From contig JBKJIT010000003.1 of assembly GCA_046598345.1 (NCBI GenBank), positions 73,023-137,022 on the forward strand: a DNA stretch of 64,000 bases, given 5' to 3'. The notes under the pieces were generated by a model. The model did not search any database. It worked only from the letters and a program-made list of their open reading frames with translations, and was not told where the DNA came from. Numbering within the stretch: the stretch's first letter is position 1; every line of letters starts with the position of its first letter. The position numbers and the translations under genes are program-made. Below are positions 6,232 through 51,009 of this stretch, piece by piece. This DNA comes from Minisyncoccia bacterium (lineage in GTDB: Bacteria > Patescibacteriota > Minisyncoccia > Phycocordibacterales > UBA918).

Positions 6232-6246
6232 TTCCACGTGAAACAT

Positions 6247-7378: not shown

Positions 7379-7423
7379 ACCCAAACTGGGACGAGATCTA
7401 GAACCAAGACACCAAAATGAACC

Positions 7424-7459: not shown

Positions 7460-7487
7460 TGTAGCGAGAGAAGTCGCAAAGTAAAGG

Positions 7488-7549
7488 CATTTTTACCGGA
7501 ATGTCTGAAAATAAAGCTTGTTTAATTTTCAGACATTCCGGTAAAAATG
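7488..7549. promoter_or_regulatory. 25-bp perfect inverted repeat with a 12-nt loop, upstream of the ECF sigma gene
   Basis: catttttaccggaatgtctgaaaat-aaagcttgttta-attttcagacattccggtaaaaatg. ORF 7501-7710 spans it and is probably spurious. Confidence 0.6.
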
Positions 7550-7774
7550 AGCATGTTCAGCATGCGCACTTTGCGATTTCCGAGCGAAGAAGGGTTGTAT
7601 CGCAGATACACCCACACCCCTCTATTGGTCAAAAAGCGATTCTTCTTGACGGCGAAATAATACCATCGACTCACGAAATATGCGAATCGGTGCCAGAGGC
7701 CTTGACATGAGCACTGTCATATTTCACTGAAAGAAGTCGGCTTTTTAACCGTCTTCGATTATAATGGTTTCCAC

Positions 7775-8371
7775 ATGGGCAGAGAACCAGAAAAACCACG
7801 TCGGAAACCGACAGGCGACCAAGAAGGAAGCCAAGAGGAGCGTTTTTTGAAAGCGTTTGATGAGTACGTAGACGCGCTCTATCGCCACTCGTCATTTCGG
7901 TTGGCTGATAAAGAACGATCTATTGAGCTCGTGCATGACACCTTCACCAAAGTGTGGGGATACATTCGTGCCGGGCATACCATTGATTCATACAAGCCCT
8001 TTTTGTATAAGGTGCTCAACAATCTTGTAATTGATGAGTATCGTCGTAAAAAGGATGTCTCTCTCGACTCGCTTCTTGCTGAAGAGGGGAAGAGTGAGAG
8101 TTCATTTGATGAGCTCCACGAGGGTTCGATCGAAGAAGTCGTCTTTGGACTTGATGCGAAGAAAGCGGTCGTACTTATCCATGAATTACCACACACGTAT
8201 CGTGAGGTGATCACACTCCGTTATATTGACGGCTTAGGTCCAAAAGAGATCAGCGTCCTCATCGAGGAGACCGAGAATGTTGTGTCGGTACGAATTCATC
8301 GAGCGCTCCGGTTACTTCGGGAACGGATCGAACTTTTGGAAGAAAAATCCAGACGAAAACGAAATGTATAG
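7775..8371 (+). CDS. ECF-type RNA polymerase sigma factor (sigma-24 family)
   Basis: Region 2 (DTFTKVWGYIRAG...YKPFLYKVLNNLVIDEYRRK) and region 4 (EVITLRYIDGLGPKEISVLIEETENVVSVRIHRALRLLRE). A TATAAT box lies 12 nt upstream. A possible ECF-like motif, TGAAAG-N15-CCGTCT, sits at about 7731-7757. Confidence 0.85.
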   Translation: MGREPEKPRRKPTGDQEGSQEERFLKAFDEYVDALYRHSSFRLADKERSIELVHDTFTKVWGYIRAGHTIDSYKPFLYKVLNNLVIDEYRRKKDVSLDSLLAEEGKSESSFDELHEGSIEEVVFGLDAKKAVVLIHELPHTYREVITLRYIDGLGPKEISVLIEETENVVSVRIHRALRLLRERIELLEEKSRRKRNV

Positions 8372-8374
8372 ACT

Positions 8375-9721
8375 ATGAAATCTTTTGATTCTGATGTAAA
8401 AAAATATTCTGAAAAAATACACTTGAGTGTATCTGAACGCCGCGCACTTCGCGAGCGTGTTGTTTCGTATATGGAGTACCATCCACTTGCAAAAGAGGAG
8501 GGGGCTTCATCGTATGCTTTTACTGAAAAATATGTCCTCCTTTCTTTTAATACATTCTGGACAAGAATTGCATCCGGAGCTGCACTCCTTTTACTTATTG
8601 TAGGTATTCCAGTTGCGGCTGAGCGTGCAGTGCCGGGAGATGTTCTCTATTTTGTAAAAACTGAAGTGAATGAAAGTATTCAGTCACAGTTTGCTGATTC
8701 ACCGTACGAAAAAATTGCTTTTGAAACAAAACTCATTGATCGACGTATTGATGAAGCACGTCTTCTTGCAAGTGAAGGGAAACTCACGAAGGAAGTAGAA
8801 GCTTCGATTGCGGAAGATGTAAAAGATCACGCAGAGGCCGCGCAAGATGGCCTTGCAGAACTTCGAACGAATGATGCTGAGGGAGCTGTTATTGCTGAGG
8901 TTACCCTAGGTTCCGCCCTTGAGGTGCAGTCTGCTGTACTCGACACAAATACGAGCGTATCAGCCACATCGTCAATTGAAAATATCTTGGGTGCAGTAAA
9001 TACTGCACGTGAAGAAATTGAGCAGAATCAGAGCACTACCACTTCTGTTACGGTGCTCACGAGTGAAATTGAAGAAGCAACAACTCGCGCGTACGAATTA
9101 TTTGAAACGGTGAAGGAATCAGCTACCAAAGAGGAGGAACGAGATATCAACCGGCGCCTTTCTGATATTGATCGACAAATAGTTGCGGCTAATAAACTTC
9201 GCAATCGTGACGAAGAGGCCGCGGTGAATGAACTCAAGGAGGTACTCGGACTTCTTCAAAAACTTATTGTATTCATGACTGATATTGATGTGAGTGAGAC
9301 GGTTACGCTTGAGGCACTTGTACCTATCGTACCGACGATTGAAGAGCATGTAGCAAGCACACGGGCTACACTTGCACGTGTGGCTACGACTGCAAGTATT
9401 ATTGAGAAGCGAACCTCCTTTGTTTCTGATGCTTCTGTGCAGGAAAAGGTGTTGCTAGGTCTCGAAGCAGTAGCAGCTCTCTCTGACGATGTACTAGTAC
9501 GGCTTTCGAGTGAAGAACCTGATATGGAAGGTATTCTGAAGCAACTCTTTGAAGCCGAAGCTCTCGTACAAGACCTTGAAAAAATGACTCTCGAAACAAT
9601 CATTTCAGACGAAGAGAGTACGAAGTTTCCAACACCAGTCATTCCCGGAGAAACGAGTACCAGTAGCTCATCCACGACCATAGAAGCTACACTTCCGCTC
9701 CCAATCTTTGTGGCAGAATAA
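8375..9721 (+). CDS. Putative anti-sigma factor: single-pass membrane protein with an extracytoplasmic coiled-coil/Ser-Thr-rich domain
   Basis: It starts 4 nt after the sigma gene. It has a ~65-aa cytoplasmic N-terminus, one TM helix (ALLLLIVGIPVAA), then a long helical low-complexity ectodomain. This is the classic ECF anti-sigma architecture, but the family was not recognised. Confidence 0.5.
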   Translation: MKSFDSDVKKYSEKIHLSVSERRALRERVVSYMEYHPLAKEEGASSYAFTEKYVLLSFNTFWTRIASGAALLLLIVGIPVAAERAVPGDVLYFVKTEVNESIQSQFADSPYEKIAFETKLIDRRIDEARLLASEGKLTKEVEASIAEDVKDHAEAAQDGLAELRTNDAEGAVIAEVTLGSALEVQSAVLDTNTSVSATSSIENILGAVNTAREEIEQNQSTTTSVTVLTSEIEEATTRAYELFETVKESATKEEERDINRRLSDIDRQIVAANKLRNRDEEAAVNELKEVLGLLQKLIVFMTDIDVSETVTLEALVPIVPTIEEHVASTRATLARVATTASIIEKRTSFVSDASVQEKVLLGLEAVAALSDDVLVRLSSEEPDMEGILKQLFEAEALVQDLEKMTLETIISDEESTKFPTPVIPGETSTSSSSTTIEATLPLPIFVAE

Positions 9722-12650: not shown

Positions 12651-14177
12651 TTACTTTGCGTATTCGATTGCGCGGGACTCTCGAATGACATTAACTTTAA
12701 TTTCTCCCGGGTACCGTAGCTTCTCTTCAATGTCTGTCGCGATGCTGCGAGCGAGATTGTGGGCCTCGAGATCGGTCACCTTTTCAGGGTTTACTATGAC
12801 TCGTACCTCTCGTCCAGCCTGAATTGCGAATGCTTTCTCAACCCCTGGCATAGAGAGTGCAATTTCTTCGAGCTCACCCAGACGTTTTATGTAGTTCTCA
12901 ATGGAATCATGGCGTGCACCGGGACGACCTCCTGAAATCGCATCAGCGACCTGCACGATGATCGATTCCGGTGTGTCATACGGGTATTCTTCATGATGGG
13001 CGCGCATTGCGACAATGACTGCCTGATCCACTTCGTACTTTTGTAGGATCCGAATACCAATTTCAACGTGTGTCCCTTGCACCTCCTGGCTCACGGTCTT
13101 TCCAATATCGTGGAGGAGAGCTCCTGCACGTGCGACCGCTACATCCGCGCCCACTTCCTCAGCAATAATTGCCGCGATGTGCGCCATTTCAACAGAGTGC
13201 CAGAGCACGTTCTGTCCATAACTTGTTCTAAAATGCAGCCGTCCGAGGATTTTCACGAGATCAGGGTGAAGGTTAGGTACTCCTGCATCAAAACATGCTT
13301 TTTCACCCATCTTTCGAACAATAGTTCCAACCTCTTTCCGTGCCTTCTCAACGATCTCCTCGATCTTTGCCGGCTGAATACGTCCATCGGCGAGAAGGAG
13401 CTCAAGTGCGACGCGAGCAATTTCGCGACGCACCGGATCAAATGAAGATAGGGTGATGTGTCCTGGAGTATCGTCAATAAGCACGTCAACACCCGTCGCA
13501 CGCTCAAAGGCACGAACGTTCCGACCTTCCTTTCCGATGATTTTCCCCTTTACCTCTTCATTCGGAAGCGCGATCATCGAACTCATGATGTCGACTCGCA
13601 CAGAATTACCAATGCGATGTATCGCTGAGGTGATGATTTCTTTTGCTTTTTCGTCGTACTGTTCCTCGCCGCGCATGCTCATTTTCTGAATGCGCTTCAT
13701 GATGTTCACCTCATATTCCTTTTCAATATTCGCAACGACCCGTTCGTAGGCCTCGTCCTTGGTGAGTCCGGCAACTTCTTCAACTTTCTTTTCTATTTCA
13801 CCCTTTCGTTCATCGAGTTGAACCTTGATTTCTTTAACCTGCTCAATTTTTTGACGCACCGATTCAACCTCGGAATCGAGATCCATTTGGCGTTTATCGA
13901 GAAGTTCGTCCTTACGTATGTGGCGCTCTTCAGCCTTATTTAACTTTTCTTCCTGTTCCTTAAATCGTTCCTTCAGTTCTTTCTCCAGTGATTCGGCCTT
14001 CGTTTCTGCTTTTTCTAATATCTTGAGTGCTTTTGCTTCAGCATCGACAAGTTTTTCCTTAAGGGAAAGTTCAAGCGACTCTTTCTTGCTGAGTGCATAG
14101 ACATATCGGAGATAGTATCCCAAAGCAATACCGACAAGCCCTGCGACAATAAGCGCAAAGATTACGGAAAGTGGCAT
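12651..14177 (-). CDS. rny: Ribonuclease Y
   Basis: N-terminal TM helix, a long coiled coil, a KH domain (KGKIIGKEGRNVRAFERATGVDVLIDD) and an HD domain (ALLHDIGK). Confidence 0.9.
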   Translation of the reverse strand: MPLSVIFALIVAGLVGIALGYYLRYVYALSKKESLELSLKEKLVDAEAKALKILEKAETKAESLEKELKERFKEQEEKLNKAEERHIRKDELLDKRQMDLDSEVESVRQKIEQVKEIKVQLDERKGEIEKKVEEVAGLTKDEAYERVVANIEKEYEVNIMKRIQKMSMRGEEQYDEKAKEIITSAIHRIGNSVRVDIMSSMIALPNEEVKGKIIGKEGRNVRAFERATGVDVLIDDTPGHITLSSFDPVRREIARVALELLLADGRIQPAKIEEIVEKARKEVGTIVRKMGEKACFDAGVPNLHPDLVKILGRLHFRTSYGQNVLWHSVEMAHIAAIIAEEVGADVAVARAGALLHDIGKTVSQEVQGTHVEIGIRILQKYEVDQAVIVAMRAHHEEYPYDTPESIIVQVADAISGGRPGARHDSIENYIKRLGELEEIALSMPGVEKAFAIQAGREVRVIVNPEKVTDLEAHNLARSIATDIEEKLRYPGEIKVNVIRESRAIEYAK

Positions 14178-21552: not shown

Positions 21553-23322
21553 TTGGAGCTTTTTGGAACTGTGCGAATACAAGATGCACAATTAAAGCGC
21601 TTTGTTCTTGATTCAGGGCTTGTGACCCGGAAGGATATTGAGTCTGCCGAGCGAGTTGCGCTCGAAGAAAAGCGTTCACTCTCCGAAGCACTCGTCTCCT
21701 CTGGTGCAATGACCGAGGACGATCTGAGGCGTGTTGAGTCGTACGTACTCGGTGTGCCATTCGTGGCTCTCAAGAATGTAAAGATTGATTTCGCAATTCT
21801 CTCGCTCATTCCGGAGCCAATCGCGCGCAATCATAATATTGTTGCGTACAAAAAGGGGGAAGGGTCGCTCGAGGTTGCGATGCTCGATACTGCCGATCTT
21901 TCGGCGATCGATTTTGTGAAAAAGAAAGTGGGCCTTAAGATTTTGCCCCGCCTCACAGATACTGAATCCATGAGGAGCGTACTCATGCAGTATCAGAAGA
22001 CACTCAAGGATGAGTTCGGAGACATCATTATGAAAGAGACCTTGGCACTCAAGGTACTTAAGGAAGAGGGGGCAGATGACATGTCGGAGAAGGATCTGAA
22101 GAAAATGGCAGAAGATCTCCCAGTTGTGCGAATTGTCGATACACTCCTCCGTCACGCAATCATTCAAGGAGCGTCAGATATCCATATTGAACCAATGGAG
22201 AATGAGCTTCTCGTGCGGTATCGTATTGACGGTATTCTCCACGACGCGATGTCGCTCCCTAAGCATGCAGCACCAACTATTTCCGCGCGCATTAAGGTGC
22301 TTTCGAATTTGAAGCTTGATGAAAAGCGTTTGCCGCAGGATGGTCGCTTTAAGATGGAGATGGAGAGTCAGAAGGTCTCATTCCGTGTTTCCATTTTGCC
22401 TATCTTCTACGGAGAAAAGATTGTGATGCGTCTCCTCAGGGAGGGTCGCTCGGGCTTTACGCTCGAAGGATTGGGTTTCCATGGACAGGCGCTCGAAGGT
22501 TTGCACTCTGCAACGAAGCAAACGACTGGAATTATTCTTGTTACGGGGCCTACAGGTTCAGGAAAGACGACGACCCTGTACACAGTGCTCGATATTTTAA
22601 ATACGCCGGAGGTTAACATTTCGACGATTGAAGATCCGGTGGAATATCAAATGCCGCGCGTGAACCAAACGCAGGTAAAGCCGGATATTGGGTTTAGTTT
22701 TGCGAATGGACTCCGCTCTCTTATGCGTCAGGATCCAGACATTATCATGGTAGGAGAGATTCGTGACCAAGAGACAGCGTCCCTCGCCATCAATGCGGCT
22801 TTGACCGGACACCTCGTACTTGCGACAGTGCACACCAACTCCGCCTCAGCGACAGTAGCTCGTCTCGTCGATATGGGAGTTGAGACTTTCCTCCTGGTAT
22901 CAACCCTCAAGGTGGCGGTGGGGCAGCGACTCGTGAGAAGACTCACGGATACGAAGGAAGCCTACACGCTTTCCTCAAATGAAAAAGCAGATATTGAGAA
23001 ATACGTAGATTTGGATCGAGTGCTTGAAGCCCTGAAGAAAGAGGGTGTCGTAAAGCCGGGGGCAACCTGGAATAGCATTCCGTTCTATCGCCCTAAAGTA
23101 AATAGTGAGACAGATAATGGGTACAAGAGTCGAATGGGAATTCATGAAGTGCTTCGCATGTCTCCAGCGCTCAAAGATTTGGTCATGGCGTCAGGGACGG
23201 CAGACGCGATCGAAGCACAGGCTCGCAAAGAGGGAATGCTCACTATGATTGAAGATGGGATTTACAAGGCTGCATTGGGACAGACGAGTGTGGAGGAGGT
23301 CCTTCGCGTTATTTCAGAATAA
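21553..23322 (+). CDS. pilB: Type IV pilus assembly ATPase PilB / GspE
   Basis: N-terminal GspII-like domain, Walker A GPTGSGKTTT, plus Asp and His boxes. Confidence 0.9.
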   Translation: MELFGTVRIQDAQLKRFVLDSGLVTRKDIESAERVALEEKRSLSEALVSSGAMTEDDLRRVESYVLGVPFVALKNVKIDFAILSLIPEPIARNHNIVAYKKGEGSLEVAMLDTADLSAIDFVKKKVGLKILPRLTDTESMRSVLMQYQKTLKDEFGDIIMKETLALKVLKEEGADDMSEKDLKKMAEDLPVVRIVDTLLRHAIIQGASDIHIEPMENELLVRYRIDGILHDAMSLPKHAAPTISARIKVLSNLKLDEKRLPQDGRFKMEMESQKVSFRVSILPIFYGEKIVMRLLREGRSGFTLEGLGFHGQALEGLHSATKQTTGIILVTGPTGSGKTTTLYTVLDILNTPEVNISTIEDPVEYQMPRVNQTQVKPDIGFSFANGLRSLMRQDPDIIMVGEIRDQETASLAINAALTGHLVLATVHTNSASATVARLVDMGVETFLLVSTLKVAVGQRLVRRLTDTKEAYTLSSNEKADIEKYVDLDRVLEALKKEGVVKPGATWNSIPFYRPKVNSETDNGYKSRMGIHEVLRMSPALKDLVMASGTADAIEAQARKEGMLTMIEDGIYKAALGQTSVEEVLRVISE

Positions 23323-38130: not shown

Positions 38131-38604
38131 ATGCGACGACCAATTAAACGACGACCAGCACTCAAAGGAGACGATAGATTTAATTCAGTAACGGTTTCAC
38201 GCCTCGTAAACTATGTGATGGTTCGTGGACAGAAGGAAACTGCACGAAAGATCGTGTATGCAATGCTTGAGGAAATTAAGAATGCAAAGGAGGGTGGAGG
38301 TGATCCTGTAGAAATTTTGGAAACAGCAATCAGGAATGCCGGTCCCCAGATGGAAGTCCGATCACGACGTGTGGGTGGTGCTAACTATCAGGTGCCACGT
38401 GAAGTTCGCCAAGAGCGACGTCTTGCGCTTGCGTTCCGTTGGATCATTACTGCTGCGAGAGCACAGAAGGCGACTCCAATGTTCAAGGCACTCGCAAATG
38501 AAATTATGGCAGCTGCGCGTGAGGAAGGATCGGCAGTGAAGAAGAAGGAGGATACTCACCGAATGGCAGAAGCCAATCGCGCCTTCGCACACTTCGCTTG
38601 GTAG
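38131..38604 (+). CDS. rpsG: 30S ribosomal protein S7
   Basis: VNYVMVRGQKETARKIVYAMLEEIK...ANYQVPREV..., a canonical uS7. Confidence 0.93.
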   Translation: MRRPIKRRPALKGDDRFNSVTVSRLVNYVMVRGQKETARKIVYAMLEEIKNAKEGGGDPVEILETAIRNAGPQMEVRSRRVGGANYQVPREVRQERRLALAFRWIITAARAQKATPMFKALANEIMAAAREEGSAVKKKEDTHRMAEANRAFAHFAW

Positions 38605-38643
38605 AAACCTAAAAATTCAGCGACTTACTTTGTCGCACTACGA

Positions 38644-38687
38644 AAAAAGACCCTCGCCGTATGTTAAATACGTCTCGGGTCTTTTTT
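38644..38687 (+). terminator. Strong intrinsic terminator immediately after rpsG
   Basis: aaaaagaccctcgccgtatgttaaatacgtctcgggtcttttttc. Confidence 0.7.
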
Positions 38688-38735
38688 CTTGTGCTTCGCG
38701 TAATCCATCTGAATTTCTAGGTTTCTCAATCCAAG

Positions 38736-38764
38736 TTGACCAACTATATAATTAATTGTATAGT
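38736..38764 (+). promoter_or_regulatory. Promoter TTGACC-17-TATAGT for the sigma-r4/alpha-CTD fusion gene
   Basis: The same TTGACCAACT -35 context recurs at 40556. Confidence 0.5.
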
Positions 38765-38839
38765 CCTAAAGTAATTTGATCTTTGTAATCGGCATGTCGC
38801 CAGACCGCTCCTCAGGGAACACTGGGGTTGGAGAGAATA

Positions 38840-39484
38840 GTGAATAAAATATTTGAGGAGTTAGGTCTGTCGACAGAGGAACAAGATGAACTCGGAGAAG
38901 AGTGCCTTTCGCAACTCATGTTCAGGCTTTTAAGTCTCCTTTCTGAGCAGCAGTCGAGAGTCTTGAATGCGTATTTTGGCATGAATAGTCAACATCCTCA
39001 AACCTTGAGGGAGATTGCGAAAGCAATGAATCTTTCAAAGTCACGAGTTGGACAAATCAAACAAAAGGCCATCCGGATACTTCGTCATCCTTCGAGATTT
39101 AAGTTGGCATTGGAGGAAGTAAAGGATTCAAGGTGGAGTAATGAACCTAATCTACTCGTGCGTGAGCTTCGAAGGAGTTTGCTAGAGCTTGAGGCTAAGT
39201 TGGTCGATTCTAATAATCGCTTACAAAAAGCGGAACAAAGAATTGACAGGCTTGAGAGACATCTAAAGCGGCCGGATGTACATCCCTTGTCAGATCAGCC
39301 GTTTGAAGACTTATTCACCGTTCGAACGGCGACTTGCCTGAAGTGTGACGACATCTTGACGATCGGGGATATTTTGAAGCGAAATGAAAGTCAATTGCTC
39401 AGCGTTCCGAATTTAGGGCGTATGGCAGGTGCCGAAATCAAAGCGGTCCTCGCAGAGCGGGGACTTTCTCTCAAAGCAACTTAA
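38840..39484 (+). CDS. Chimeric protein: RpoD-like sigma-70 region 4.2 HTH + coiled-coil linker + RNA polymerase alpha-subunit C-terminal-domain (alphaCTD) homolog
   Basis: N-terminal LSEQQSRVLNAYFGMNSQHPQTLREIAKAMNLSKSRVGQIKQKAIRILRHPSR versus RpoD ...ERIRQIEAKALRKLRHPSR. C-terminal FEDLFTVRTATCLKCDDILTIGDILKRNESQLLSVPNLGRMAGAEIKAVLAERGLSL versus RpoA ...[55 protein letters not shown]. The GTG start at 38840 lies 4 nt after GGAGAG. The longer TTG start at 38828 is possible. Confidence 0.8.
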   Translation: MNKIFEELGLSTEEQDELGEECLSQLMFRLLSLLSEQQSRVLNAYFGMNSQHPQTLREIAKAMNLSKSRVGQIKQKAIRILRHPSRFKLALEEVKDSRWSNEPNLLVRELRRSLLELEAKLVDSNNRLQKAEQRIDRLERHLKRPDVHPLSDQPFEDLFTVRTATCLKCDDILTIGDILKRNESQLLSVPNLGRMAGAEIKAVLAERGLSLKAT

Positions 39485-39510
39485 TAAGTCTCTGAACTCT
39501 TCAGTACTCG

Positions 39511-39550
39511 AACCCGTCGTAAGTGTATGCTTGCGACGGGTTTTCTTTTT
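39511..39550 (+). terminator. Intrinsic terminator after the fusion gene
   Basis: aacccgtcgtaagtgtatgcttgcgacgggttttcttttt. Confidence 0.7.
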
Positions 39551-39577
39551 AATAATGTACCGTGATAGGGTATGTAG

Positions 39578-40222
39578 ATGCAATTTATTCTCCATAACTA
39601 TAGGCGATGTCCGTTTTGTATTCGTACCCGAATTCTTCTCTATCTGAAAAGAATCGAATATGACATTGTCGAGGAGCCGCTTCGGGAGTGGACTCCGTGG
39701 ATGAAAGAGTGGGCGTTTAGAACGGGCGAACGTACGCGTGTGCCCGTGCTTCGTTATGTGCTTGAAGAAGGAGTAGAGAAAGTGATGCCTGAATCAAATG
39801 AGATGAATCTTTTCATTGATAATTCAGATGGTGATCCAAAGTTTACACCGGGAATAGATAGTCCAGGTTATTCTGAAATGCTTGAGTGGTGGAATTGGTG
39901 CGACAAAAAACTGAAACCAATGATTGATCTCTATAAATATGGAGTGAATTTACAATTTGATCCTTTAATTCATCCGCTTCATACTGAAGAATTGCAAAAA
40001 CTCATACAAGTACTTGAAAATCACCTGCAGTCCAGAAAGTTTTTAATTGAAGAGCGACTTACTCTTGCTGATATTGCAATCATTCCGTTTATTCGCCAGA
40101 TCATGCGCACACGCGAAGGTGAGTTTGATTTTACCCCGTACCCTAAAGTGCTTGCATGGGCAAATCAGATTCTTCAAACTGACTGGTTTCAAAACGAAAT
40201 AATGAAAAAGCAACCAAAATAA
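39578..40222 (+). CDS. Glutathione S-transferase / glutaredoxin-2-like thioredoxin-fold protein
   Basis: N-terminal CPFC active-site motif with a downstream VPVL (cis-Pro), then a helical GST_C-like domain. Confidence 0.65.
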   Translation: MQFILHNYRRCPFCIRTRILLYLKRIEYDIVEEPLREWTPWMKEWAFRTGERTRVPVLRYVLEEGVEKVMPESNEMNLFIDNSDGDPKFTPGIDSPGYSEMLEWWNWCDKKLKPMIDLYKYGVNLQFDPLIHPLHTEELQKLIQVLENHLQSRKFLIEERLTLADIAIIPFIRQIMRTREGEFDFTPYPKVLAWANQILQTDWFQNEIMKKQPK

Positions 40223-40223
40223 C

Positions 40224-40544
40224 ATGGGAAAGAAAACGGGTAGAGCGGGAGGAAAATTCGGGGGTGGGCACACTACGGTGATTCCTGCGGCTGGCATTAT
40301 TGCTGATATTGCTCATCAGTGTGCTTCGGTCACAAAGATTTCTCCAGGGTTTATTAAGGGTGGTCTTTCTTCAGTGAAGGGTATTAAACGACTCAAAATA
40401 ACTGATGATGGAGGAAGTATTCTCCTTTCTGTGCGCGACAATATCTCGCATCAAGAATTACGTATCTATACGACTGACATACAAGCGACTCGCAGTTGCA
40501 TCGCAGAGGGTGCCCTCAAGGCCGGGTTTAAGATTTCCAACTAA
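40224..40544 (+). CDS. Hypothetical protein (Gly-rich N-terminus)
   Basis: A 106-aa ORF that starts 1 nt after the GST stop. No recognised motif. Confidence 0.35.
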   Translation: MGKKTGRAGGKFGGGHTTVIPAAGIIADIAHQCASVTKISPGFIKGGLSSVKGIKRLKITDDGGSILLSVRDNISHQELRIYTTDIQATRSCIAEGALKAGFKISN

Positions 40545-40555
40545 GTTTGACCAAC

Positions 40556-40583
40556 TTCTTAAAGGTTGTACAGTACAGGTTGG
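40556..40583 (+). promoter_or_regulatory. Promoter TTGACC-16-TACAGT
   Basis: TTGACCAACT -35 context as at 38736. It precedes the 40638 ORF, which has an AAGGGGATGAG ribosome-binding site. Confidence 0.45.
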
Positions 40584-40637
40584 TGTCTCGAGATTGGATG
40601 TTCGAGATGAGTACAACATGCGAAAGAAGGGGATGAG

Positions 40638-40952
40638 ATGGCTATAAAAGTTGTAGCAGAAAAAGCTGTTGCAGTTTTGGAATTTAAGCCAAACCAGTTT
40701 CAAACGAGGCTCGATCGACTTGCCACTCGTTTTTCTGGAGTTCTGGCAGACCTGCGTGTGCGAATGGTTCAGCAGGTCGGTGAGTGGACCTGGGAGCTCT
40801 TCGGACAGAAGACTAAGCGGGTGGTGGCTCGGATCAGCGTGGCACCAAACCAAGTTGTCGCATATGTGCGAAGGGGACGTTTCCGTCTTCGGAAAGCACT
40901 TCAAGCACTAATTGCCGAGTTTTTTCAGGTGGCAGAATTTAAGCCACTCTAA
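40638..40952 (+). CDS. Hypothetical protein
   Basis: A 104-aa ORF with a good ribosome-binding site, followed by a bidirectional terminator at 40970-40996. Confidence 0.4.
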   Translation: MAIKVVAEKAVAVLEFKPNQFQTRLDRLATRFSGVLADLRVRMVQQVGEWTWELFGQKTKRVVARISVAPNQVVAYVRRGRFRLRKALQALIAEFFQVAEFKPL

Positions 40953-40993
40953 ATCTCAACCTATAGAGGAAAGCCAGCGGCAACGCTGGCTTT

Positions 40994-42001
40994 TTACATG
41001 CTTTTAGGAGTTGGCCGTCTTCCAAGTTTGCGAGCGAATTTGTATACCAGTGCCAGTATGAGAATAAGGAGGCCAAGTTCAAGAAGCGCAGGATGCGCGA
41101 GGATATGTGAGAGGAGCCAAAGAATTACAGTGTATGCGGTGTAGAGGAGTGTCCGCCCTGCTTCTACGACTTGTGTAAAGAAGCTTTTCTCCGAATCCAT
41201 GGACGAGCGCGTGATGGTTGCAGTACCCGTACTCGTATTTCCCTCCGACGTAGATTGTTTGCCAAAGTATTCATCCATTTCATCTTGGCGCGTTTCGCGG
41301 TATGCATCGAGAGAAGTCTTTGACTTGATGATGCGGTCGGTAGCGCGTGAAAACACGGTATGTGTCTTACCTTCACGTAAGTACTGCTCAAGCCCATCTT
41401 CAGTTGCAAGAGTTACAGCAGCCGATTGCCCTGACTCATTACTCTCAGTATTTCTGTCAGTTGCTTTCTCTTCTACTTTTTCTTCAGGTATAGGATTTCC
41501 CACAAGTGGATTTGTACCTCGATTTTTTTCATCCTCGTCAGTGATGGTGTCATTGTCGTCATCGGTATCAGATTCATTTCCAGTGCCGTCTTTGTCAGTG
41601 TCGTAATCAATGCGGAGTGTGTCTTCTGCAATGGTACTTTCTATTTCTCCCGAATTTTCTTCCGCACCGACGACATGGAGCTTTACGTCAGTAAGCGTTG
41701 CGGTAATTTTGTGCTCACCAAAGGTTGGTGTCCAATCCACCCAACCTTCCACAATACGTCCGGGAAGCGCACTCACAACCCTGGTGCCAATCGTCGCGTC
41801 GTTATCGGTAAATCGAATAGTGCCACTTATGTCATGGTCGGTGTTGTTTCGGAGTGCCACATACATACGTGTTGGAACTTCCGCAAAAACAGTTGGGCTC
41901 GAGTACCAGAGTCCCTGCACGAGTCCCGCATTAAGTTCGTTCCCGAGGACAATTCCGGGGAAGAGGAGTATAAACGCACAGATATATAGAATCCGCTGCA
42001 T
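40994..42001 (-). CDS. Surface protein: signal peptide, acidic Ca-binding (thrombospondin-type-3-like D-x-D-x-D-G) repeats, C-terminal TM anchor
   Basis: MQRILYICAFILLFPGIVLG signal peptide. DTDKDGTGNESDTDDDNDTITDEDEKN repeats. C-terminal hydrophobic helices plus a KFARKLGRR stop-transfer. Confidence 0.55.
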   Translation of the reverse strand: MQRILYICAFILLFPGIVLGNELNAGLVQGLWYSSPTVFAEVPTRMYVALRNNTDHDISGTIRFTDNDATIGTRVVSALPGRIVEGWVDWTPTFGEHKITATLTDVKLHVVGAEENSGEIESTIAEDTLRIDYDTDKDGTGNESDTDDDNDTITDEDEKNRGTNPLVGNPIPEEKVEEKATDRNTESNESGQSAAVTLATEDGLEQYLREGKTHTVFSRATDRIIKSKTSLDAYRETRQDEMDEYFGKQSTSEGNTSTGTATITRSSMDSEKSFFTQVVEAGRTLLYTAYTVILWLLSHILAHPALLELGLLILILALVYKFARKLGRRPTPKSM

Positions 42002-42068
42002 ACCCTATAGTATACGTCAGCCTAAAGCTTTTGTTTTTGTCCGAAACTTCCTATACTAGTGCATCACT

Positions 42069-43301
42069 ATGAAATTTCTTCCGTACTGTGAGGAGTGTGG
42101 CGAACTGCGAGTCCCACATCGATTTCTTCGGCTCTCAGATCACCTAGTGACGAATGTGTTTGAAGGCGGTCCTTGGGGACGGGAATTCAAAGCACTTCAT
42201 GGATTTGTAGACACACGCGTGACAAACTTCTTCACTCCAAAGCGAGTCAAAGCACTCGCTCTTTTTACGAGGCGTCTAGGGATCGGTTCCTATTCATTCG
42301 CACCTACAAAAACAGACGACACACGCACACTCGCATTATACGAAGGTGCAGAAAAAACTGGAGTAACACTTCTCACATTCAAGCTTTTTGGCACCACGCT
42401 CTGCTTCGTTGCAGAAAAGGTCTTTCCAGATGGAAAGAAGGAAGAATTAGTTTTCAATCTCATTCCACGACCCAAGAACTTCGAATCGCCATCGCTCGAA
42501 TGGATGGGGGATAAGGCACTTCTTAAGGAAAGGCTCATGCATGCTGGACTGCCGTGTGCAGAAGGCGGAGTAGCAAGTACTGAAGCAGAGGCACTCATGC
42601 TTTTTAGGAAGATTGGTCGGCCAGTAATTACGAAGCCTCATATCGGTAGCCGCGGCCGTCATACGACGCTTGATGTCCGGACTGAAGAAGAGTTGATGCG
42701 AGCGTACCGTATTGCGACTCAAATTACGGATGGAGTTGTGGTTGAGGCCTACCTTAAAGGTACAGTCCACCGAGTGACGCTCGTTGGCGGAAAGCCGGCA
42801 GCTGTGGCGAGGCGTGAATACCCGCATGTGATCGGAGATGGGATGCATTCAGTTGGTGAACTTATCGCAGAGGAGAATGCAAAACCACATCGAAATGGTA
42901 CACATTTCAGACACATTGATACCGAGCACCGCATTCATGCTTCCCTTAAGAAACAAAACCTCACACTCGCCTCAATTCCTGAAGTGGGGGAAATGGTGAT
43001 CCTTAATGATAAAAATAGCCGTCTCCATGGAACCCTTACTGAAGATGTAACTGATACGGTGCACGAAGAAAATCTTGCACTTTTCACGAAGCTCGGAGAC
43101 CTTCTTGGGGATCCTATCGTTGGGGTTGATTTTATGATTACGGACATGAGTCGTTCCTGGAAAGAGCAACCGGACGCCGGGTTTATCGAATGCAACTCAA
43201 TGCCGTTTATTGATGTACACCATCAGGTCGTAAGTGGCCGGCCTATCAACGTGGCGGCACTCCTCTGGAATGAGGTATTTAAAACTCCTGAGTCTATTTG
43301 A
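42069..43301 (+). CDS. ATP-grasp ligase, cyanophycin-synthetase N-terminal-domain-like
   Basis: RPVITKPHIGSRGRHTT...VVVEAYLKGTVHRVTLVGGKPAAVARREYPHVIGDGMHSVGELI...IVGVDFMITDMS. This resembles the CphA ATP-grasp module. There is no Mur-ligase domain. Confidence 0.6.
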   Translation: MKFLPYCEECGELRVPHRFLRLSDHLVTNVFEGGPWGREFKALHGFVDTRVTNFFTPKRVKALALFTRRLGIGSYSFAPTKTDDTRTLALYEGAEKTGVTLLTFKLFGTTLCFVAEKVFPDGKKEELVFNLIPRPKNFESPSLEWMGDKALLKERLMHAGLPCAEGGVASTEAEALMLFRKIGRPVITKPHIGSRGRHTTLDVRTEEELMRAYRIATQITDGVVVEAYLKGTVHRVTLVGGKPAAVARREYPHVIGDGMHSVGELIAEENAKPHRNGTHFRHIDTEHRIHASLKKQNLTLASIPEVGEMVILNDKNSRLHGTLTEDVTDTVHEENLALFTKLGDLLGDPIVGVDFMITDMSRSWKEQPDAGFIECNSMPFIDVHHQVVSGRPINVAALLWNEVFKTPESI

Positions 43302-43360
43302 CGAAGGTAATGAGAAGAGTACACTACGAACAAAGCTCTTCATCAAAATAGGAAACTACC

Positions 43361-44164
43361 ATGGAAAAGTCCAAGTATATTTCAAAGGTTAACGGTCACG
43401 CTCTCGTTCTTGGCGGCTCTGGTGGAATCGGAGCAGAAATTTCGCTCGCATTTGCTGCAAATGGAGTAAAAGCTATTTCATTCACCTATAACCGTAACAA
43501 AAAAGCAGCGGACGCTCTCGCTAAAGAGCTCAAAAAAAATGGGGTGAAAAAGGTCTATTACGACGCTCTAAATCAATCAGACGATGTTGCTGTCGCCCAG
43601 TTCCTCGAGGCTGCGGTTGTGGCAAACGGTTCAGAGATCGAAATTGCCGTAAATGCAGTGGGTGTTTCACCGAATAAGCCACTTGAGAAACAGCGACTCG
43701 AAACCACGGGAGAGGGAACGGACAACATCGGCTGGCGCGAGGTGTTTGAGACTAATGTGTTTGGTTGTTTTGTCTCTACGCGGGCAATCGCCGAGCGCAT
43801 GAAGGCCAAAAAAATTAAGGGGGCAATAACTCTGATCACGTCAACGAACGGTATCAATAGCCATTCCCAAATTTCTGTGCATTACGATGCTTCGAAGGCC
43901 GCACAGTCACACATGATGCGCGTGCTTGCTGAGCACTATGGAAGAAAGTATGAGATTCGTATCAATGGGATTGCTCCAGGGTGGATTGATACTGACATGA
44001 ATAAGTCGCTACCAGTTTCCGAACGCAAAAAGGAAATGAAAAAAATCTGGAGTGGCCGTTTCGCTTTTCCCCATGAGGTCGCAGCCTTTGTGGTATTTAT
44101 CTCCGGAACTGGAGGGAGTTACACATACGGTCAAGACATTATGGTTGATGGAGGATATCGATAG
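43361..44164 (+). CDS. SDR family NAD(P)-dependent oxidoreductase
   Basis: GGSGGIGAEIS (TGxxxGxG) and YDASKAA (YxxxK). Confidence 0.8.
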   Translation: MEKSKYISKVNGHALVLGGSGGIGAEISLAFAANGVKAISFTYNRNKKAADALAKELKKNGVKKVYYDALNQSDDVAVAQFLEAAVVANGSEIEIAVNAVGVSPNKPLEKQRLETTGEGTDNIGWREVFETNVFGCFVSTRAIAERMKAKKIKGAITLITSTNGINSHSQISVHYDASKAAQSHMMRVLAEHYGRKYEIRINGIAPGWIDTDMNKSLPVSERKKEMKKIWSGRFAFPHEVAAFVVFISGTGGSYTYGQDIMVDGGYR

Positions 44165-44200
44165 GCATTAAGAGCGCATAACAGCGCTCTTTCTTTTATA

Positions 44201-44229
44201 TTGCCGAACCTATTTAAATACCGTATAGT
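44201..44229 (+). promoter_or_regulatory. Promoter TTGCCG-17-TATAGT for fusA, followed by a ~190-nt structured leader
   Basis: The leader contains a family 1 repeat copy at 44281-44340. Confidence 0.5.
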
Positions 44230-44421: not shown

Positions 44422-46590
<2,169 letters not shown>

Positions 46591-46591
46591 A

Positions 46592-46625
46592 AGAAAAGAG
46601 CACCGCAAGGTGCTCTTTTCTTTTA
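46592..46625 (+). terminator. Intrinsic terminator after fusA
   Basis: aaaagagcaccgcaaggtgctcttttctttt. Confidence 0.7.
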
Positions 46626-46726
46626 TTACCTCTCATCTGTTACTCCGCGGGCCGAAGGCGAGGGGTGAGGAATGGGATGGGACCCATTCCTCAAGAGGTT
46701 GTCGACAAAATAATCCCACGTCAGCG

Positions 46727-46790
46727 GTTTTATTTTGTCATACAACCTGAACAGCGTCTGTAAGACGGGAAGGATGTTCAGGACGAAGCA
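46727..46790 (+). repeat. Repeat family 1, copy c4: TTATTTTGTCATACAACCTGAACAG-CGTC-TGTAA-GACG, nested in a CCTGAACA/TGTTCAGG stem
   Basis: See the family 1 alignment. Confidence 0.6.
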
Positions 46791-46821
46791 TAAAAAACAC
46801 CCATCGAAGGTGCTTTTTTGT

Positions 46822-47613
46822 TTACTCCCCATTAACCTCAGGAGCTTCCTTCACCGCCTCCAAAACCCTCTCATGACAAAACCCATTTGAGAAGATCATT
46901 CCGTGCGCAATACGATGATCCGGTGAGCCATATACAAGTGGTTTTCCGCCGCAGTCAGTAACTTTGCCGCCGGCTTCTTTCAAAATAATTTCCGGAGCGC
47001 AGACATCCCATTCCCCGAGCGTGCCTCTGGAAAAAAAGAAGTCGCCTTTGTTTTCTGCAATTACTCCCGCTTTTACCCCAATGCTTCCCCGAGGTACTTT
47101 TAGTGCCTGGGTTTTTTCTCTAACCACCTCCATGTACGGGGCAAAGTTGTTTGCACTGCAAAGAAAACGGAGCTGTTCGCCGTGTGCGTCCACCATGAGC
47201 TCGAGCGTGACGCCGTTTCGTACCATGTATGCTCCTCTCCCTTCCTCGGCGTAGTACATAGTGTGAGTGACAGGGACGTAGACCACTCCAAGTATTGGTC
47301 TCCCGTTTTCAATGAGCCCAATCATGACGGAGAAATCTCCGGTTTTCTGTAAAAAATCTTTAGTGCCATCGAGTGGATCGATAATCCAGAGTTGGTCTGG
47401 GTAGGGAAGCGCGATTCCTTCTGCTTCTTCCGAGAGTATTGGAATGCCAGTTGTATTGAGATACTTAAGAATGGTGTCATGGGCAGTTTTGTCCGCAACC
47501 GTAACTGGTGTACCATCCACTTTTGATTCAAAGTCAGTAGTTGCATACAGTGTTAAAACAGCGTCACCGGCTTCCTTGGCGGCTTTTTGGGCCGTTTTGA
47601 GTAGTGGATTCAT
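46822..47613 (-). CDS. Inositol monophosphatase / CysQ-SuhB family phosphatase
   Basis: WIIDPLDGTKDF motif. Confidence 0.8.
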   Translation of the reverse strand: MNPLLKTAQKAAKEAGDAVLTLYATTDFESKVDGTPVTVADKTAHDTILKYLNTTGIPILSEEAEGIALPYPDQLWIIDPLDGTKDFLQKTGDFSVMIGLIENGRPILGVVYVPVTHTMYYAEEGRGAYMVRNGVTLELMVDAHGEQLRFLCSANNFAPYMEVVREKTQALKVPRGSIGVKAGVIAENKGDFFFSRGTLGEWDVCAPEIILKEAGGKVTDCGGKPLVYGSPDHRIAHGMIFSNGFCHERVLEAVKEAPEVNGE

Positions 47614-47710
47614 AGGCTCAGTATATAGACAATTTGCAGTGAATCCAATTATTCGCTTTCGTAATTATTTATTTGTATACTCTCTACAGATTAGTTAAGG
47701 AGAGACAATC

Positions 47711-48226
47711 ATGAATAATGCTGAAACACGCACGTTCAGACTTCTCCAAGCTTTGAAGGAGAAAGGATGGACTGTTGATTTCCTTCAGGCACTCGCTCAT
47801 CAACCATTGTCACCAGGTTTTTCTGATGTACAAGTCGGAAAAGTTCTGTATGTCTCTACCAAAGAAAAAACACTAAATTTCAATCTCCAAGTCAAGGTGA
47901 ATCGGCCACTTAACCGTAAGGCTCGTCGGATCATCCAAAAGCTGGGCATATTTGAACTTCAAAGTGTATGTACTTTTGTTCCGATGCCGGAAGGTTTTAT
48001 TTTGTTTTGGTCTTGTCAGGAGCCACTTCTTTTTCGGGATAGTACGTCGTTGGAAAATTTCGTAACGAAAATTGAAGCCCGCTTTGAATTTGGCCAAGAG
48101 ATGTTGCTACCAAGTCTCCATCTTCTTCGTGAGTGTTATGTGAAAGATCCTCAGTTCAGAGCACTTCACCCTCTAAGCCTGTATGCATTTGCTGTTCACA
48201 TTGACGAAGAAGTAGTTTTACACTAA
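47711..48226 (+). CDS. Hypothetical protein (tandem paralog 1)
   Basis: 171 aa. Weak similarity to the next ORF (LLQALKEKGWTVDFL versus LREVLCDWAQANNWKVDTI). Its own terminator lies at 48226-48252. Confidence 0.45.
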   Translation: MNNAETRTFRLLQALKEKGWTVDFLQALAHQPLSPGFSDVQVGKVLYVSTKEKTLNFNLQVKVNRPLNRKARRIIQKLGIFELQSVCTFVPMPEGFILFWSCQEPLLFRDSTSLENFVTKIEARFEFGQEMLLPSLHLLRECYVKDPQFRALHPLSLYAFAVHIDEEVVLH

Positions 48227-48344
48227 AAAGCCGCGTTCGCGCGGCTTTTTTTAGTAATCCCCTCTCGAGAAAAAATTGCGTCGCAAACTCTATATACTTA
48301 CAGTAGGAATTACCGTAGCGTTCGTTTACATTAAGGAGACGGTC

Positions 48345-48857
48345 ATGCTGCAAACTATCACGGTATTACGAGAAGTGCTGTGTGATTGGGCACAAGCTAA
48401 TAACTGGAAGGTTGACACTATTGGGCTCAGAACATATGCGGATTTAAGAGAGCCGATACTGTCGGACTTACTAGGATATTGTTCTTTTAAATTCTTGCCA
48501 GCAGAGGATCAGCTCAGTGTTCATTTTTCGGTCAAAACACCTGAGTTCTCCATCCCAGAAAGACACTTTCTGGAAAAATACTGCAAAGAGGTTGCTTGCG
48601 CCAGGCAAGTAGAGCTATCCATCGGAGAGAAAAATAACTCACTTGAACTTTGGTGGTGGCCAAATTGGGAAAAGCATTTTGCCACACTTGTTGAGAACGA
48701 TATTCAAAAAGAATTGAATGCGCAAGTGAATTTTGGCAGGTGGATTCTCGTACGCACACTTGCAGATCTTCGATTTTACAATTTACTTAAGGGCGAAGAA
48801 GCGGTAACTCACGCTTCGGCATTAGTCGAGTTTTCAGATTTTTGCCCAGTAAATTGA
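48345..48857 (+). CDS. Hypothetical protein (tandem paralog 2)
   Basis: The start was chosen at MLQTIT, 5 nt after AAGGAGA. Two hairpin terminators follow. Confidence 0.45.
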   Translation: MLQTITVLREVLCDWAQANNWKVDTIGLRTYADLREPILSDLLGYCSFKFLPAEDQLSVHFSVKTPEFSIPERHFLEKYCKEVACARQVELSIGEKNNSLELWWWPNWEKHFATLVENDIQKELNAQVNFGRWILVRTLADLRFYNLLKGEEAVTHASALVEFSDFCPVN

Positions 48858-48956
48858 AAAATCAAAAAAGACCGCGCAGCATTAGCGCGGCTTTTGTTTT
48901 CATAAAAAAAGCGACCCGGATGGGTCGCTGTGCTAGGGAAACATGCTTGCGGGTTA

Positions 48957-49484
48957 CTATACCGCTTGAAAACCGCCTGCAGTTGTAGTCTTCGCCTGAT
49001 GCGCGAGGCCGGCGTTCGTGACTTCGTCCGCCTGTTGCATCTGCGGTTCCTTCGGCTGCATCCACTCAGTGTTCATAAGCGACTGCACACAGCGCCGGAA
49101 CATCTTTGCCTTCCAGTACTGGGCGAGGGCAATCAGAACGTGCACGTGCACTGAGTCGACCGTTGCCGTGACAAGGTCGTTCGTTTCCGTCCGCATTCCG
49201 AACTGCTCGTGCACAAGTTCCGGAAACGCGTACTTGATGATCTCGGGCTTGATGTGTCCGAGTTCGTTGCGCAAAAGGGCTTGCACCTTTTCGGGTGTGA
49301 TGCCCTTGGCGTATGCTTCCTGTCGTGTCATTTCGCGCTTCGGGTTTGCGATCAGGTGGCGACAGCCGGCCTTGAACTCCGCCGGCACATCGGCGAAACA
49401 GGACGTCTTGGAGTCCACCAGGACGATTTGTTCGCCGCTGATCATGCCGATCACGAGCTCGAACTTTGGTGCTGTTTCCATCAA
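48957..49484 (-). CDS. Hypothetical protein encoded in a visibly GC-rich segment
   Basis: A 175-aa ORF. By eye, the local sequence is markedly GC-richer than its surroundings. No recognised motif. Confidence 0.4.
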   Translation of the reverse strand: MMETAPKFELVIGMISGEQIVLVDSKTSCFADVPAEFKAGCRHLIANPKREMTRQEAYAKGITPEKVQALLRNELGHIKPEIIKYAFPELVHEQFGMRTETNDLVTATVDSVHVHVLIALAQYWKAKMFRRCVQSLMNTEWMQPKEPQMQQADEVTNAGLAHQAKTTTAGGFQAV

Positions 49485-49812
49485 TAACTCCTTGGTTTGA
49501 ATGTACTTAGAACCTGCCGCTGTGGCAGGAGGGAAGGCTATAATACCTCATAATTTTGAATTGTCAATGCCATTCTAATTCTGTATTGCAAAATCCCTAG
49601 GCTTCTTGTACTATTGCGGGCACCGCATCGCGCTTTATCTGTGATTTTATACAGATATTCGTGATCGAGAGTTTTTGCTCTTTATATGCAGCGTGTACTA
49701 AGTGGTAAGGCAATGTTCTCGCGCCCTTTCCTCTCAGTGCTCGCAGACTCTTTTTATACAAAAAGGGTCGCAGTGCGGAATTATTATCTAAATTAATTAG
49801 TATTTACGTACT

Positions 49813-51009
<1,197 letters not shown>

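Follow-up and report, generated by a model that had tools for sequence, protein, structure and literature searches.

Accessory-gene hotspots flanked by conserved core genes are a general concept in bacterial genomics, and bacteria of the candidate phyla radiation (CPR) encode very few biosynthetic enzymes. Here, we describe a patch of genes lying between rpsG and fusA on a 64,000-nucleotide stretch of DNA from a Minisyncoccia bacterium (contig JBKJIT010000003.1; the whole stretch is hereafter called the window), which includes a stand-alone ligase of the ATP-grasp type. The best match of this ligase, in sequence and in fold, is the G domain of the cyanophycin synthetase CphA1 (e.g. TeCphA1, 7WAC, and SuCphA1, 7LG5). 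Residue roles are described for TeCphA1, where Asn394 and Ser396 hold the incoming aspartate and Arg458 binds the aspartate α-carboxylate; in GshF, the positions of His267 and Arg458 are taken by Tyr/Phe and Met/Tyr, respectively (PMC9427784).

The rpsG-fusA interval of the window contains seven ORFs (open reading frames). Six of them, at 39578-44164, form the patch and are present where an earlier reading of the sequence (the original prediction) had placed them: a Cys-type glutathione S-transferase (GST), a DUF2103 protein, a small ORF (ORF104), a surface protein, the ATP-grasp ligase and a short-chain dehydrogenase/reductase (SDR). The seventh is the sigma-r4/alphaCTD gene, located upstream of the six. 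The patch is probably a clade-specific set of accessory genes with fast turnover, splitting rpsL-rpsG from fusA in a Kaiserbacteria-like member of the Patescibacteria, and not one pathway, because GST and ATP-grasp occur separately in relatives and the neighbourhoods shift. The str-cluster junctions of this lineage would have become permissive to the gain and loss of accessory genes, and the six genes would lie together because insertions and losses are tolerated at this junction, and not through any cooperation of their products.

We compared this interval with that of close relatives drawn in three ways, by ATP-grasp homologues (59-65% identity), by elongation factor G (EF-G; ~90% identity) and by rpsG from metagenomes; the window EF-G is a member of a 90%-identity cluster of 38 EF-G sequences. 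All relatives share the same upstream backbone (RNase H, ComEC, superoxide dismutase, metallo-β-lactamase, L28, M50 protease, rpsL and rpsG), and the content before fusA differs. The gap of L002 holds an unknown gene, GST, GH15, DUF2103, the surface protein, ATP-grasp, glutamate dehydrogenase (GDH) and unknowns; that of L083 holds unknowns, ParE, DUF2103, GH15, the surface protein, an unknown 353-aa gene, ATP-grasp, GDH, Peptidase_S51 and unknowns. A methyltransferase-like gene, the surface protein, ATP-grasp and GDH are found in L084 (= L091), and a methyltransferase-like gene, GH15, the surface protein, ATP-grasp, SDR and other genes in L082, with no fusA in the following 8 kb. ATP-grasp is absent from the gap of L085/86 and L090, which both have GST, DUF2103, the surface protein and GDH (with, additionally in L085/86, a MazG-like protein, a helicase with an S24 domain, Fic and GNAT), and also from that of L087/88, which has GFA, GH15, DUF2103, the surface protein and unknowns, and no GST.

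The surface protein, found in six of six close relatives and in L090 (46-51% identity), is the sole constant member of the patch among the relatives compared. DUF2103 and ATP-grasp are each present in four of the six, GST in two, SDR in one, and ORF104 and the sigma-r4/alphaCTD gene in none. Orthologues of DUF2103 (58-64% identity) occur in L002, L083, L085/86, L087/88 and L090, and those of GST (74-75% identity) only in L002, L085/86 and L090. GST and ATP-grasp are both present in the window and L002, ATP-grasp without GST in L082, L083 and L084, and GST without ATP-grasp in L085/86 and L090. The SDR orthologue downstream of ATP-grasp is restricted to L082 (54% identity); GDH follows ATP-grasp in three of the four relatives that have the ligase and occupies the same site also when ATP-grasp is absent. 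The genes thus do not co-occur consistently, an outcome that the original prediction had itself named as speaking against it. The divergence of the surface protein, DUF2103 and ATP-grasp roughly matches that of the flanks, a pattern suggestive of vertical inheritance and loss.

We then considered the size of the gap in loci recovered from metagenomes by rpsG. With rpsG of at least 68% identity, eight of the ten informative loci have at least 3 kb after rpsG or no fusA within the flank. With rpsG of 52-68% identity, the distance is <1 kb in 35 of 44 loci, 1-3 kb in seven and more in two. The large rpsG|fusA gap is thus clade-specific, and the genes are indeed unusual cargo for a ribosomal operon, as had been proposed, when compared with more distant relatives, in which rpsG and fusA are mostly separated by <1 kb.

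Within 39578-44164, the genes would be read from at least three separate expression units: GST-DUF2103-ORF104, the surface protein (minus strand) and ATP-grasp-SDR. DUF2103 begins 2 nt past the GST stop, so that it has no promoter of its own; the two genes are probably co-transcribed. ORF104 would have its own promoter-like site inside this unit, and fusA would be served by its own as well. The SDR start lies 59 nt after ATP-grasp, and no terminator is found on reading the intergenic sequence. The exact 10-mer TTGACCAACT is present in three copies in the window for 0.26 expected, and none of 100 shuffles reaches three. Two of the copies are intergenic (38736 and 40547), 91-92 nt before the starts of the sigma-r4/alphaCTD gene and ORF104, and both are paired with a -10-like hexamer; for the third (11710, minus strand), no such hexamer lies at promoter spacing. 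The suggestion that this 10-mer is shared by the promoters of two small ORFs thus applies to ORF104 only, the other copy belonging to the sigma-r4/alphaCTD gene. Note that 1.85 kb separate GST from ATP-grasp, which had been proposed to work together; the two belong to different transcription units, an opposite gene and terminator-like sites lie between them, their co-occurrence is not consistent, and the proposal is not borne out.

The ATP-grasp ligase belongs to a family of its own. Its best NCBIfam match is cyanophycin synthetase (4.5e-60; residues 147-406 against model 213-474 of 871), with scores well under the CphA cut-offs (NF010623, 203.7 bits vs 877; TIGR02068, 201.1 vs 850). Weaker matches were obtained with GshAB (5e-29), N-acetylglutaminylglutamine synthetase (6e-26), LysX (3e-8), RimK (1.4e-6; 27.9 bits, cut-off 143) and Ddl (2.3e-6; 26.6 bits, cut-off 243), the last two being partial, over about residues 145-246; all NCBIfam matches are far below the family cut-offs, and no GSH-S_ATP match is among those listed in the profile search. 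Ddl, RimK and GshB, none of which gives the best or an above-threshold profile match, were rejected as assignments, and of the CphA-like, RimK-like and GshB-like options that the original prediction had left to a profile search, the CphA-like one prevails. Its description of the protein as similar to the ligase module of cyanophycin synthetase without the Mur-ligase half also stands: the C-terminal residue 410 corresponds to about CphA position 484, where the Mur-ligase-like M half would start, and the next gene is SDR.

A scan of one genome per species found a relative of this ligase in 426 species genomes. Family members are ~400 aa long, every named record is from Patescibacteria, and the records are annotated as hypothetical or, wrongly, as cyanophycin synthetase/Ddl-like; full-text literature searches found no paper on this ATP-grasp family in CPR bacteria. 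The window protein shares 37-65% identity over its full length with 94 other members and has all the elements of the family signature, i.e. a length of ~400 aa, an N-terminal C-x2-C...H, a P-loop GSRGRH and P-F-I-D-x-H-H. In the resulting 95-sequence alignment, from which all conservation counts are taken, 22 columns are invariant, including the N-terminal C-x2-C...H. An AlphaFold2 model from this alignment (predicted local distance difference test, pLDDT, 94.8) displays, in order, a C7-x2-C10...H17 knuckle with three helices (~1-70), a pre-ATP-grasp subdomain (~70-142) and a CphA-G/GshF-type core (143-404). The hairpin of invariant Cys7, Cys10 and His17 looks like a metal knuckle, for which a fourth ligand was not located. 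Foldseek returned CphA2, CphA1 and GshF as top matches over ~335 of 410 columns, among 447 PDB matches at E ≤ 0.001, those listed being ATP-grasp enzymes. The fold and the conserved Lys, Glu, Asp and Asn set place the protein in the ATP-grasp superfamily, and its assignment to the CphA/GshF branch is supported by the profile matches and the model.

Residues 143-404 align to CphA1 219-484, with K149, K189, R235, R249, D354, E374 and N376 corresponding to TeCphA1 K220, K261, R309, R323, D431, E450 and N452, respectively. All 95 sequences have K149, K189, E226, R235, D354, E374 and N376, and 94 have D382. None of the CphA G-domain residues for the ATP phosphates, Mg2+ and the acyl-phosphate is lost in the family, all being invariant or nearly so, and the same chemistry as that of the CphA G domain is therefore expected: the enzyme would activate a substrate carboxylate with ATP, forming an acyl-phosphate, and then join it to an amine. 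In contrast to CphA1, the window protein has neither the primer-anchoring N domain (TeCphA1 1-161; all profile and pairwise matches begin at CphA ~200-219) nor the arginine-adding, Mur-ligase-like M domain, and its N-terminal C-x2-C...H knuckle and helices occur in this family alone. The P-loop His267 is replaced by Arg195 (Arg in 85 of 95), the Gly next-but-two after His267 by an invariant His, the aspartate-binding Asn394 and Ser396 by Ser317 and Leu319 (the latter position being variable in the family), and Arg458 by Asp382 (Asp in 94 of 95), a position at which CphA2 enzymes have Phe or Tyr in the alignment. Because the aspartate-holding residues are replaced and Arg458 has become a near-invariant Asp, the incoming nucleophile would probably not be aspartate and may carry a cationic or uncharged group at the Arg458-equivalent site. 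The window protein is clearly not a cyanophycin synthetase, as only the G domain was found among the five features by which we defined one.

To describe the gene context of this family, we kept 80 ATP-grasp loci of the 426 genomes, with up to 10 kb on each side, compared them with the window genes by tblastn and clustered all ORFs in the 81 loci to find neighbours. The rpsL/rpsG/GST/DUF2103/surface-protein/fusA context is found only in the closest one, L002 (ATP-grasp 64% identity), and the neighbours differ in the 79 others. Elsewhere, the ligase is most often accompanied by comFC (48 loci), an unknown 170-aa gene (57 loci), pilM/N/O and pilB, of which pilB alone has a window counterpart. Cell-wall genes are found in a few loci: ddl directly upstream of ATP-grasp in L007, uppS directly upstream in L015 and L049, and YceG/MltG nearby in L004 and L006. 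In small genomes, so few cases are indistinguishable from chance.

Searching 1.84 billion representative proteins with a profile of the ATP-grasp family revealed a partner in other CPR lineages. Six proteins (P0157, P0160, P0165, P0169, P0171 and P0178) of 720-860 aa fuse a 330-470-aa domain to a following full-length ATP-grasp including its C-x2-C motif; P0312 (818 aa) is linked to these fusions by its match to the partner profile and its similar length alone. The partner family consists of ~450-550-aa hypothetical proteins in Magasanik-, Lipton-, Peregrini-, Falkow- and Doudnabacteria, with the invariant motifs STADHHGP, SLNNSSFPRG and GGGFxQ; among the taxon-named matches, none is from Kaiserbacteria or Nomurabacteria, and the partner also occurs without ATP-grasp. 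In L172 (Magasanikbacteria; 6001-8605) and L173 (Liptonbacteria; 6001-8527), a stand-alone partner is directly followed by, or overlaps, an ATP-grasp of 32-35% identity to the window protein. The order in L173 is uppS, ddl, a 230-aa Asp/Glu racemase, partner and ATP-grasp, and a VanW/PG_binding protein lies near the pair in L172. Because they are fused and adjacent, we argue that partner and ATP-grasp would act together in these lineages.

Sequence searches of Pfam, NCBIfam and PDB gave no match for the partner domain. Its model, from a 5-sequence alignment (pLDDT 79.8, i.e. only moderate confidence), has a sole significant PDB fold match, to BshC, the cysteine-adding enzyme of bacillithiol synthesis (4wbd; E = 1.9e-6, 388 columns, template modelling (TM) scores 0.46/0.40). 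No sequence-level similarity to BshC is detected even with a 55-sequence profile. The resemblance to BshC is thus a weak, fold-level lead and not family membership, and it is a feature of the partner and of no window gene: a hidden Markov model of the partner finds nothing in the 64-kb window or in 84 ATP-grasp loci (±10 kb). A weak tblastn match of the fusion N-domain at window 13605-13754, inside a 508-aa ORF resembling RNase Y, was taken as chance.

How else could the patch be explained? GST, ATP-grasp, SDR and the small ORFs might together constitute a single cluster that makes or modifies a small peptide, a thiol or an amino-acid polymer. All of them do fall within 4.6 kb, glutathione-type thiols are used by the GST family and the second-best relative of ATP-grasp is the glutathione-synthetase module of GshF, but the division into separate expression units around an opposing gene, the occurrence of GST and ATP-grasp each alone in close relatives, SDR following ATP-grasp in one of four relatives and GDH in the other three, and the different context in 79 of 80 other genomes make such a cluster very improbable. 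Neither co-occurrence nor a conserved order across relatives, as in a functional cluster or operon, was found, and co-occurrence already largely refutes this explanation. It is about as improbable that a mobile element has integrated here or that the patch is a defence island, as could be proposed from the varying content between fixed flanks, from ParE, Fic, MazG-like and S24-domain helicase genes at the same site in relatives, and from a GC content that is slightly low (0.42-0.43) over 39000-40500. Against this, no integrase or other recombinase is present in the patch, and a repeat search and a tRNA check around it found no flanking direct or inverted repeats and no nearby tRNA that could serve as target; the six genes have no match in PADLOC and only generic GST and FabG families in PHROGs, and three of the gene families track the divergence of the flanks.

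The other alternatives concern the ligase. It might be one half of a CPR-specific two-ligase pathway, with the gene for the BshC-fold partner elsewhere in the genome, making a low-molecular-weight thiol or another small amide-linked product. The six fusions, the adjacent or overlapping genes in L172 and L173 and the sole significant fold match of the partner model favour this pathway, which we nevertheless regard as unlikely: the link to BshC is at the level of a fold modelled from five sequences, and the partner is absent from the window and the ATP-grasp loci, occurs also alone and has no taxon-named match from Kaiserbacteria or Nomurabacteria. It is no less doubtful that ATP-grasp and partner constitute a two-ligase system, so far found only in Patescibacteria, for an unknown small amide-linked molecule. 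If true, the product could be a glutathione- or bacillithiol-like thiol or a cell-wall side-chain modification, and the Cys-type GST and GFA proteins recurring in the patch could use it. The small peptide or thiol product of the original prediction thus loses GST as a co-worker, and as a general guess gains one independent weak lead from the partner. Equally unlikely is a role of the ligase in the cell wall, where it would add an amino acid to a peptidoglycan precursor, for example on a side-chain amine as D-aspartate ligase does. The ddl, uppS and YceG/MltG neighbours, the gene order of L173, the VanW/PG_binding protein of L172 and the near-invariant Asp in the nucleophile pocket, which would suit an ammonium group, speak for this role; but such loci are a minority, small genomes place cell-wall genes near many genes by chance, most loci show comFC and pilus genes, the window has no such neighbour, and no NCBIfam peptidoglycan-ligase match is listed except the weak one to Ddl. 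Finally, we rejected the possibility that truncation of a cyanophycin synthetase gene left the ligase as a remnant: CphA is the best database match and the end of the protein coincides with the expected start of the M domain, but a length held at ~400 aa across at least 426 species, 22 invariant columns including its own N-terminal C-x2-C...H, a confident full-length model and the replacement of the aspartate-binding residues alike across the whole family leave almost no room for it.

A few points weigh against a patch of unrelated accessory genes and the details inferred for it. The relatives are 20-kb pieces, in which absence from the patch is not absence from the genome. ATP-grasp, where present, is divergent to the surface protein in every close relative (with one extra gene between them in L083), so that a coupling of these two is conceivable. 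GST, in the window and some relatives, and GFA, in L087, are thiol-related families recurring in the patch, which could hint at a common function. Promoter and terminator calls are consensus matches only, with a promoter count not above that of shuffled sequence. The suggested nucleophile relies on one alignment column and a homology model with no bound ligand. We nevertheless favour a set of accessory genes at a permissive junction as the explanation of the patch.

Turning to the other five proteins, GST matches Pfam GST_N_2 (39 bits), GST_N_3, GST_C (40 bits) and GST_C_2 above their cut-offs, with the CPFC motif at residues 11-14 of its thioredoxin-like N domain, in full agreement with its description as a thioredoxin-fold CPFC protein with a GST_C-like domain. 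The thioredoxin-like N domain with CPxC, together with the GST_C domain, defines it as a Cys-type GST (Grx2/omega-like). The two small ORFs, both described as unknown, have different outcomes: the first is a member of DUF2103 (PF09876, 37.1 bits vs gathering cut-off 22.4), and ORF104 has no match in Pfam, NCBIfam, PADLOC or PHROGs, is itself the sole match among 5.8 billion protein clusters and is absent from all relatives compared. It is a strict orphan; rich in basic residues, with a GGGGA-type ribosome-binding site, a promoter-like site 5' and a terminator-like site 3', it is plausibly protein-coding. The SDR was correctly described as an oxidoreductase (Pfam adh_short, 120.7 bits for a cut-off of 26.6; adh_short_C2, 129.3 bits); GGSGGIG, the Gly-rich NAD(P)-binding motif, and YDASK, the YxxxK catalytic motif, are present in the translation as in classical SDRs, and no NCBIfam model or equivalog reaches its cut-off.

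The surface protein displays, from its N-terminus, a signal-peptide-like hydrophobic stretch (residues 1-28), an Ig-like region, a thrombospondin type 3 (TSP3)-type motif, an acidic Ser/Thr-rich linker, a C-terminal hydrophobic anchor (residues 296-327) and a basic tail. Its description as a secreted, membrane-anchored protein agrees with the signal-like segment and the anchor; the TSP3-like repeats reduce to one clear motif, DTDKDGTGNESD, Asp-rich and putatively calcium-binding, and a degenerate acidic run. With this single DxDxDGxxxxxD motif, the Pfam match to TSP3_bac (15.8 bits) is below the cut-off of 25, as is that to Big_3_5, and the TSP3_bac match recorded for the orthologues in relatives is likewise weak. 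All features of the patch and its flanks are listed in Table 1.

Table 1. Features of the rpsG-fusA interval, in window coordinates
Feature	Coordinates	Strand	Evidence
rpsG (ribosomal protein S7), left conserved flank	38131-38604	+	ORF, translation; Pfam Ribosomal_S7 on identical gene in L001
Terminator hairpin after rpsG	38642-38688	+	inverted repeat I3, 21-nt arms, then T-run
Promoter-like site TTGACC-17-TATAGT with TTGACCAACT 10-mer, 5' of sigma-r4/alphaCTD gene	38736-38764	+	consensus match
sigma-r4/alphaCTD gene, outside the six	38828-39484	+	ORF
Terminator-like hairpin ending sigma-r4/alphaCTD unit	39510-39543	+	15-pair stem, then T-run
Cys-type GST/Grx2-like, 214 aa	39578-40222	+	Pfam, NCBIfam, PDB sequence neighbours
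DUF2103 protein, 106 aa	40224-40544	+	Pfam PF09876
Promoter-like site TTGACC-16-TACAGT with second intergenic TTGACCAACT, 91 nt 5' of ORF104	40547-40574	+	consensus match
ORF104, orphan, 104 aa	40638-40952	+	ORF; no database family
Terminator-like hairpin, common to convergent ORF104 and surface-protein genes	40968-40995	.	consensus scan
Surface protein, 335 aa	40994-42001	-	translation, hydrophobicity, Pfam
Stand-alone ATP-grasp ligase, 410 aa	42069-43301	+	NCBIfam, alignment, AlphaFold2 model
Classical SDR, FabG-like, 267 aa	43361-44164	+	Pfam
Terminator-like hairpin after SDR	44170-44191	+	consensus scan
Promoter-like site TTGCCG-17-TATAGT before fusA	44201-44229	+	consensus match
fusA (EF-G), right conserved flank	44422-46590	+	ORF, homology

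Several further observations were made on the window and its relatives. The sigma-r4/alphaCTD gene, a fusion of sigma-70 region 4, a coiled-coil and the RNA polymerase alpha-CTD, is bounded by a strong promoter-like site and a terminator of its own. None of the six close relatives has a counterpart, and the protein collection searched does not contain its exact sequence as read from the TTG start. Only 67 nt (42002-42068) separate the divergent start codons of the surface-protein and ATP-grasp genes. A TATACT box lies ~12 nt 5' of the ATP-grasp ATG with no Shine-Dalgarno sequence there, which suggests very short-leader or leaderless transcripts from this region. The fusA|tuf junction (46590-49813) is also split, by 3.2 kb that hold an inositol-monophosphatase-family gene (46822-47613, minus strand) and two to four ORFs without Pfam match; in L087, a Pirin gene lies between rpsJ and rplC. 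The ribosomal clusters of this clade seem to be open to insertion in general.

In the gap of relatives, genes of toxin/defence type are ParE (L083:3648-3917) and, in L085 (488-3978), Fic, an SLFN-type helicase carrying a Peptidase_S24 domain and a MazG-like protein. Peptidase_S51, the cyanophycinase/PepE family, is found two genes downstream of ATP-grasp only in L083 (10812-11471). The GFA gene of L087 (glutathione-dependent formaldehyde-activating enzyme family) is at 4451-4801 on the minus strand. In L100, L107 and L112 (rpsG 63-73% identity), the 10 kb downstream of rpsG contain no fusA, and rpsG is followed by GH15 and a ~500-aa gene (cluster c33) in L100 and by c33 in L107; the rpsG|fusA gap can thus be very large, or the cluster broken, in these loci. 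Around ATP-grasp in other genomes, the comFC-type phosphoribosyltransferase gene is ~59 nt upstream on the same strand in its 48 loci. The ~170-aa protein, which has no Pfam or NCBIfam match, is convergent and ~12 nt downstream in most Nomurabacteria-type loci (57 loci, L010-L081; e.g. L016:5668-6180, minus strand). The window PilB/GspE-type ATPase gene (21616-23319) shares ~39% identity with the pilB found beside ATP-grasp elsewhere and lies ~19 kb upstream of ATP-grasp.

As a gene cluster, the patch is ordinary: the rpsL-rpsG-fusA-tuf block of one CPR clade tolerates insertions, and the content of the gap turns over fast. The rpsG|fusA junction offers clean, fixed flanks for studies of gene gain and loss in reduced genomes, and the ATP-grasp family, widespread in Paceibacteria with a distinctive active-site signature, provides a useful handle on CPR physiology. 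Among known enzymes, this ligase is of the same ATP-grasp subgroup as the C-terminal module of GshF/GshAB (3LN6 and 3LN7; Foldseek E ~1e-22) and N-acetylglutaminylglutamine synthetase, which, as the window type may, extend the C-terminal carboxylate of a small peptide or N-acyl amino acid; it differs from them by having no GshA or GNAT domain and by Arg and Asp at the His267 and Arg458 positions. The GST resembles E. coli glutaredoxin 2, omega-class GSTs and Leishmania TDR1 by its thioredoxin-like N domain, the C-P-[FY]-C near the N-terminus and the helical GST_C, TDR1 and Grx2 being its nearest solved sequences in a PDB search, but it remains far under the equivalog cut-off of the E. coli Grx2 family (NCBIfam Grx2, 1.4e-6, 28 bits vs 133). 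The patch as a whole differs from described accessory-gene hotspots by its site inside the normally tight rpsL-rpsG-fusA-tuf cluster, in a reduced CPR genome with no mobility genes seen, and is like them in that the rpsG and fusA flanks are fixed while the content differs among relatives, including genes of toxin/defence type.

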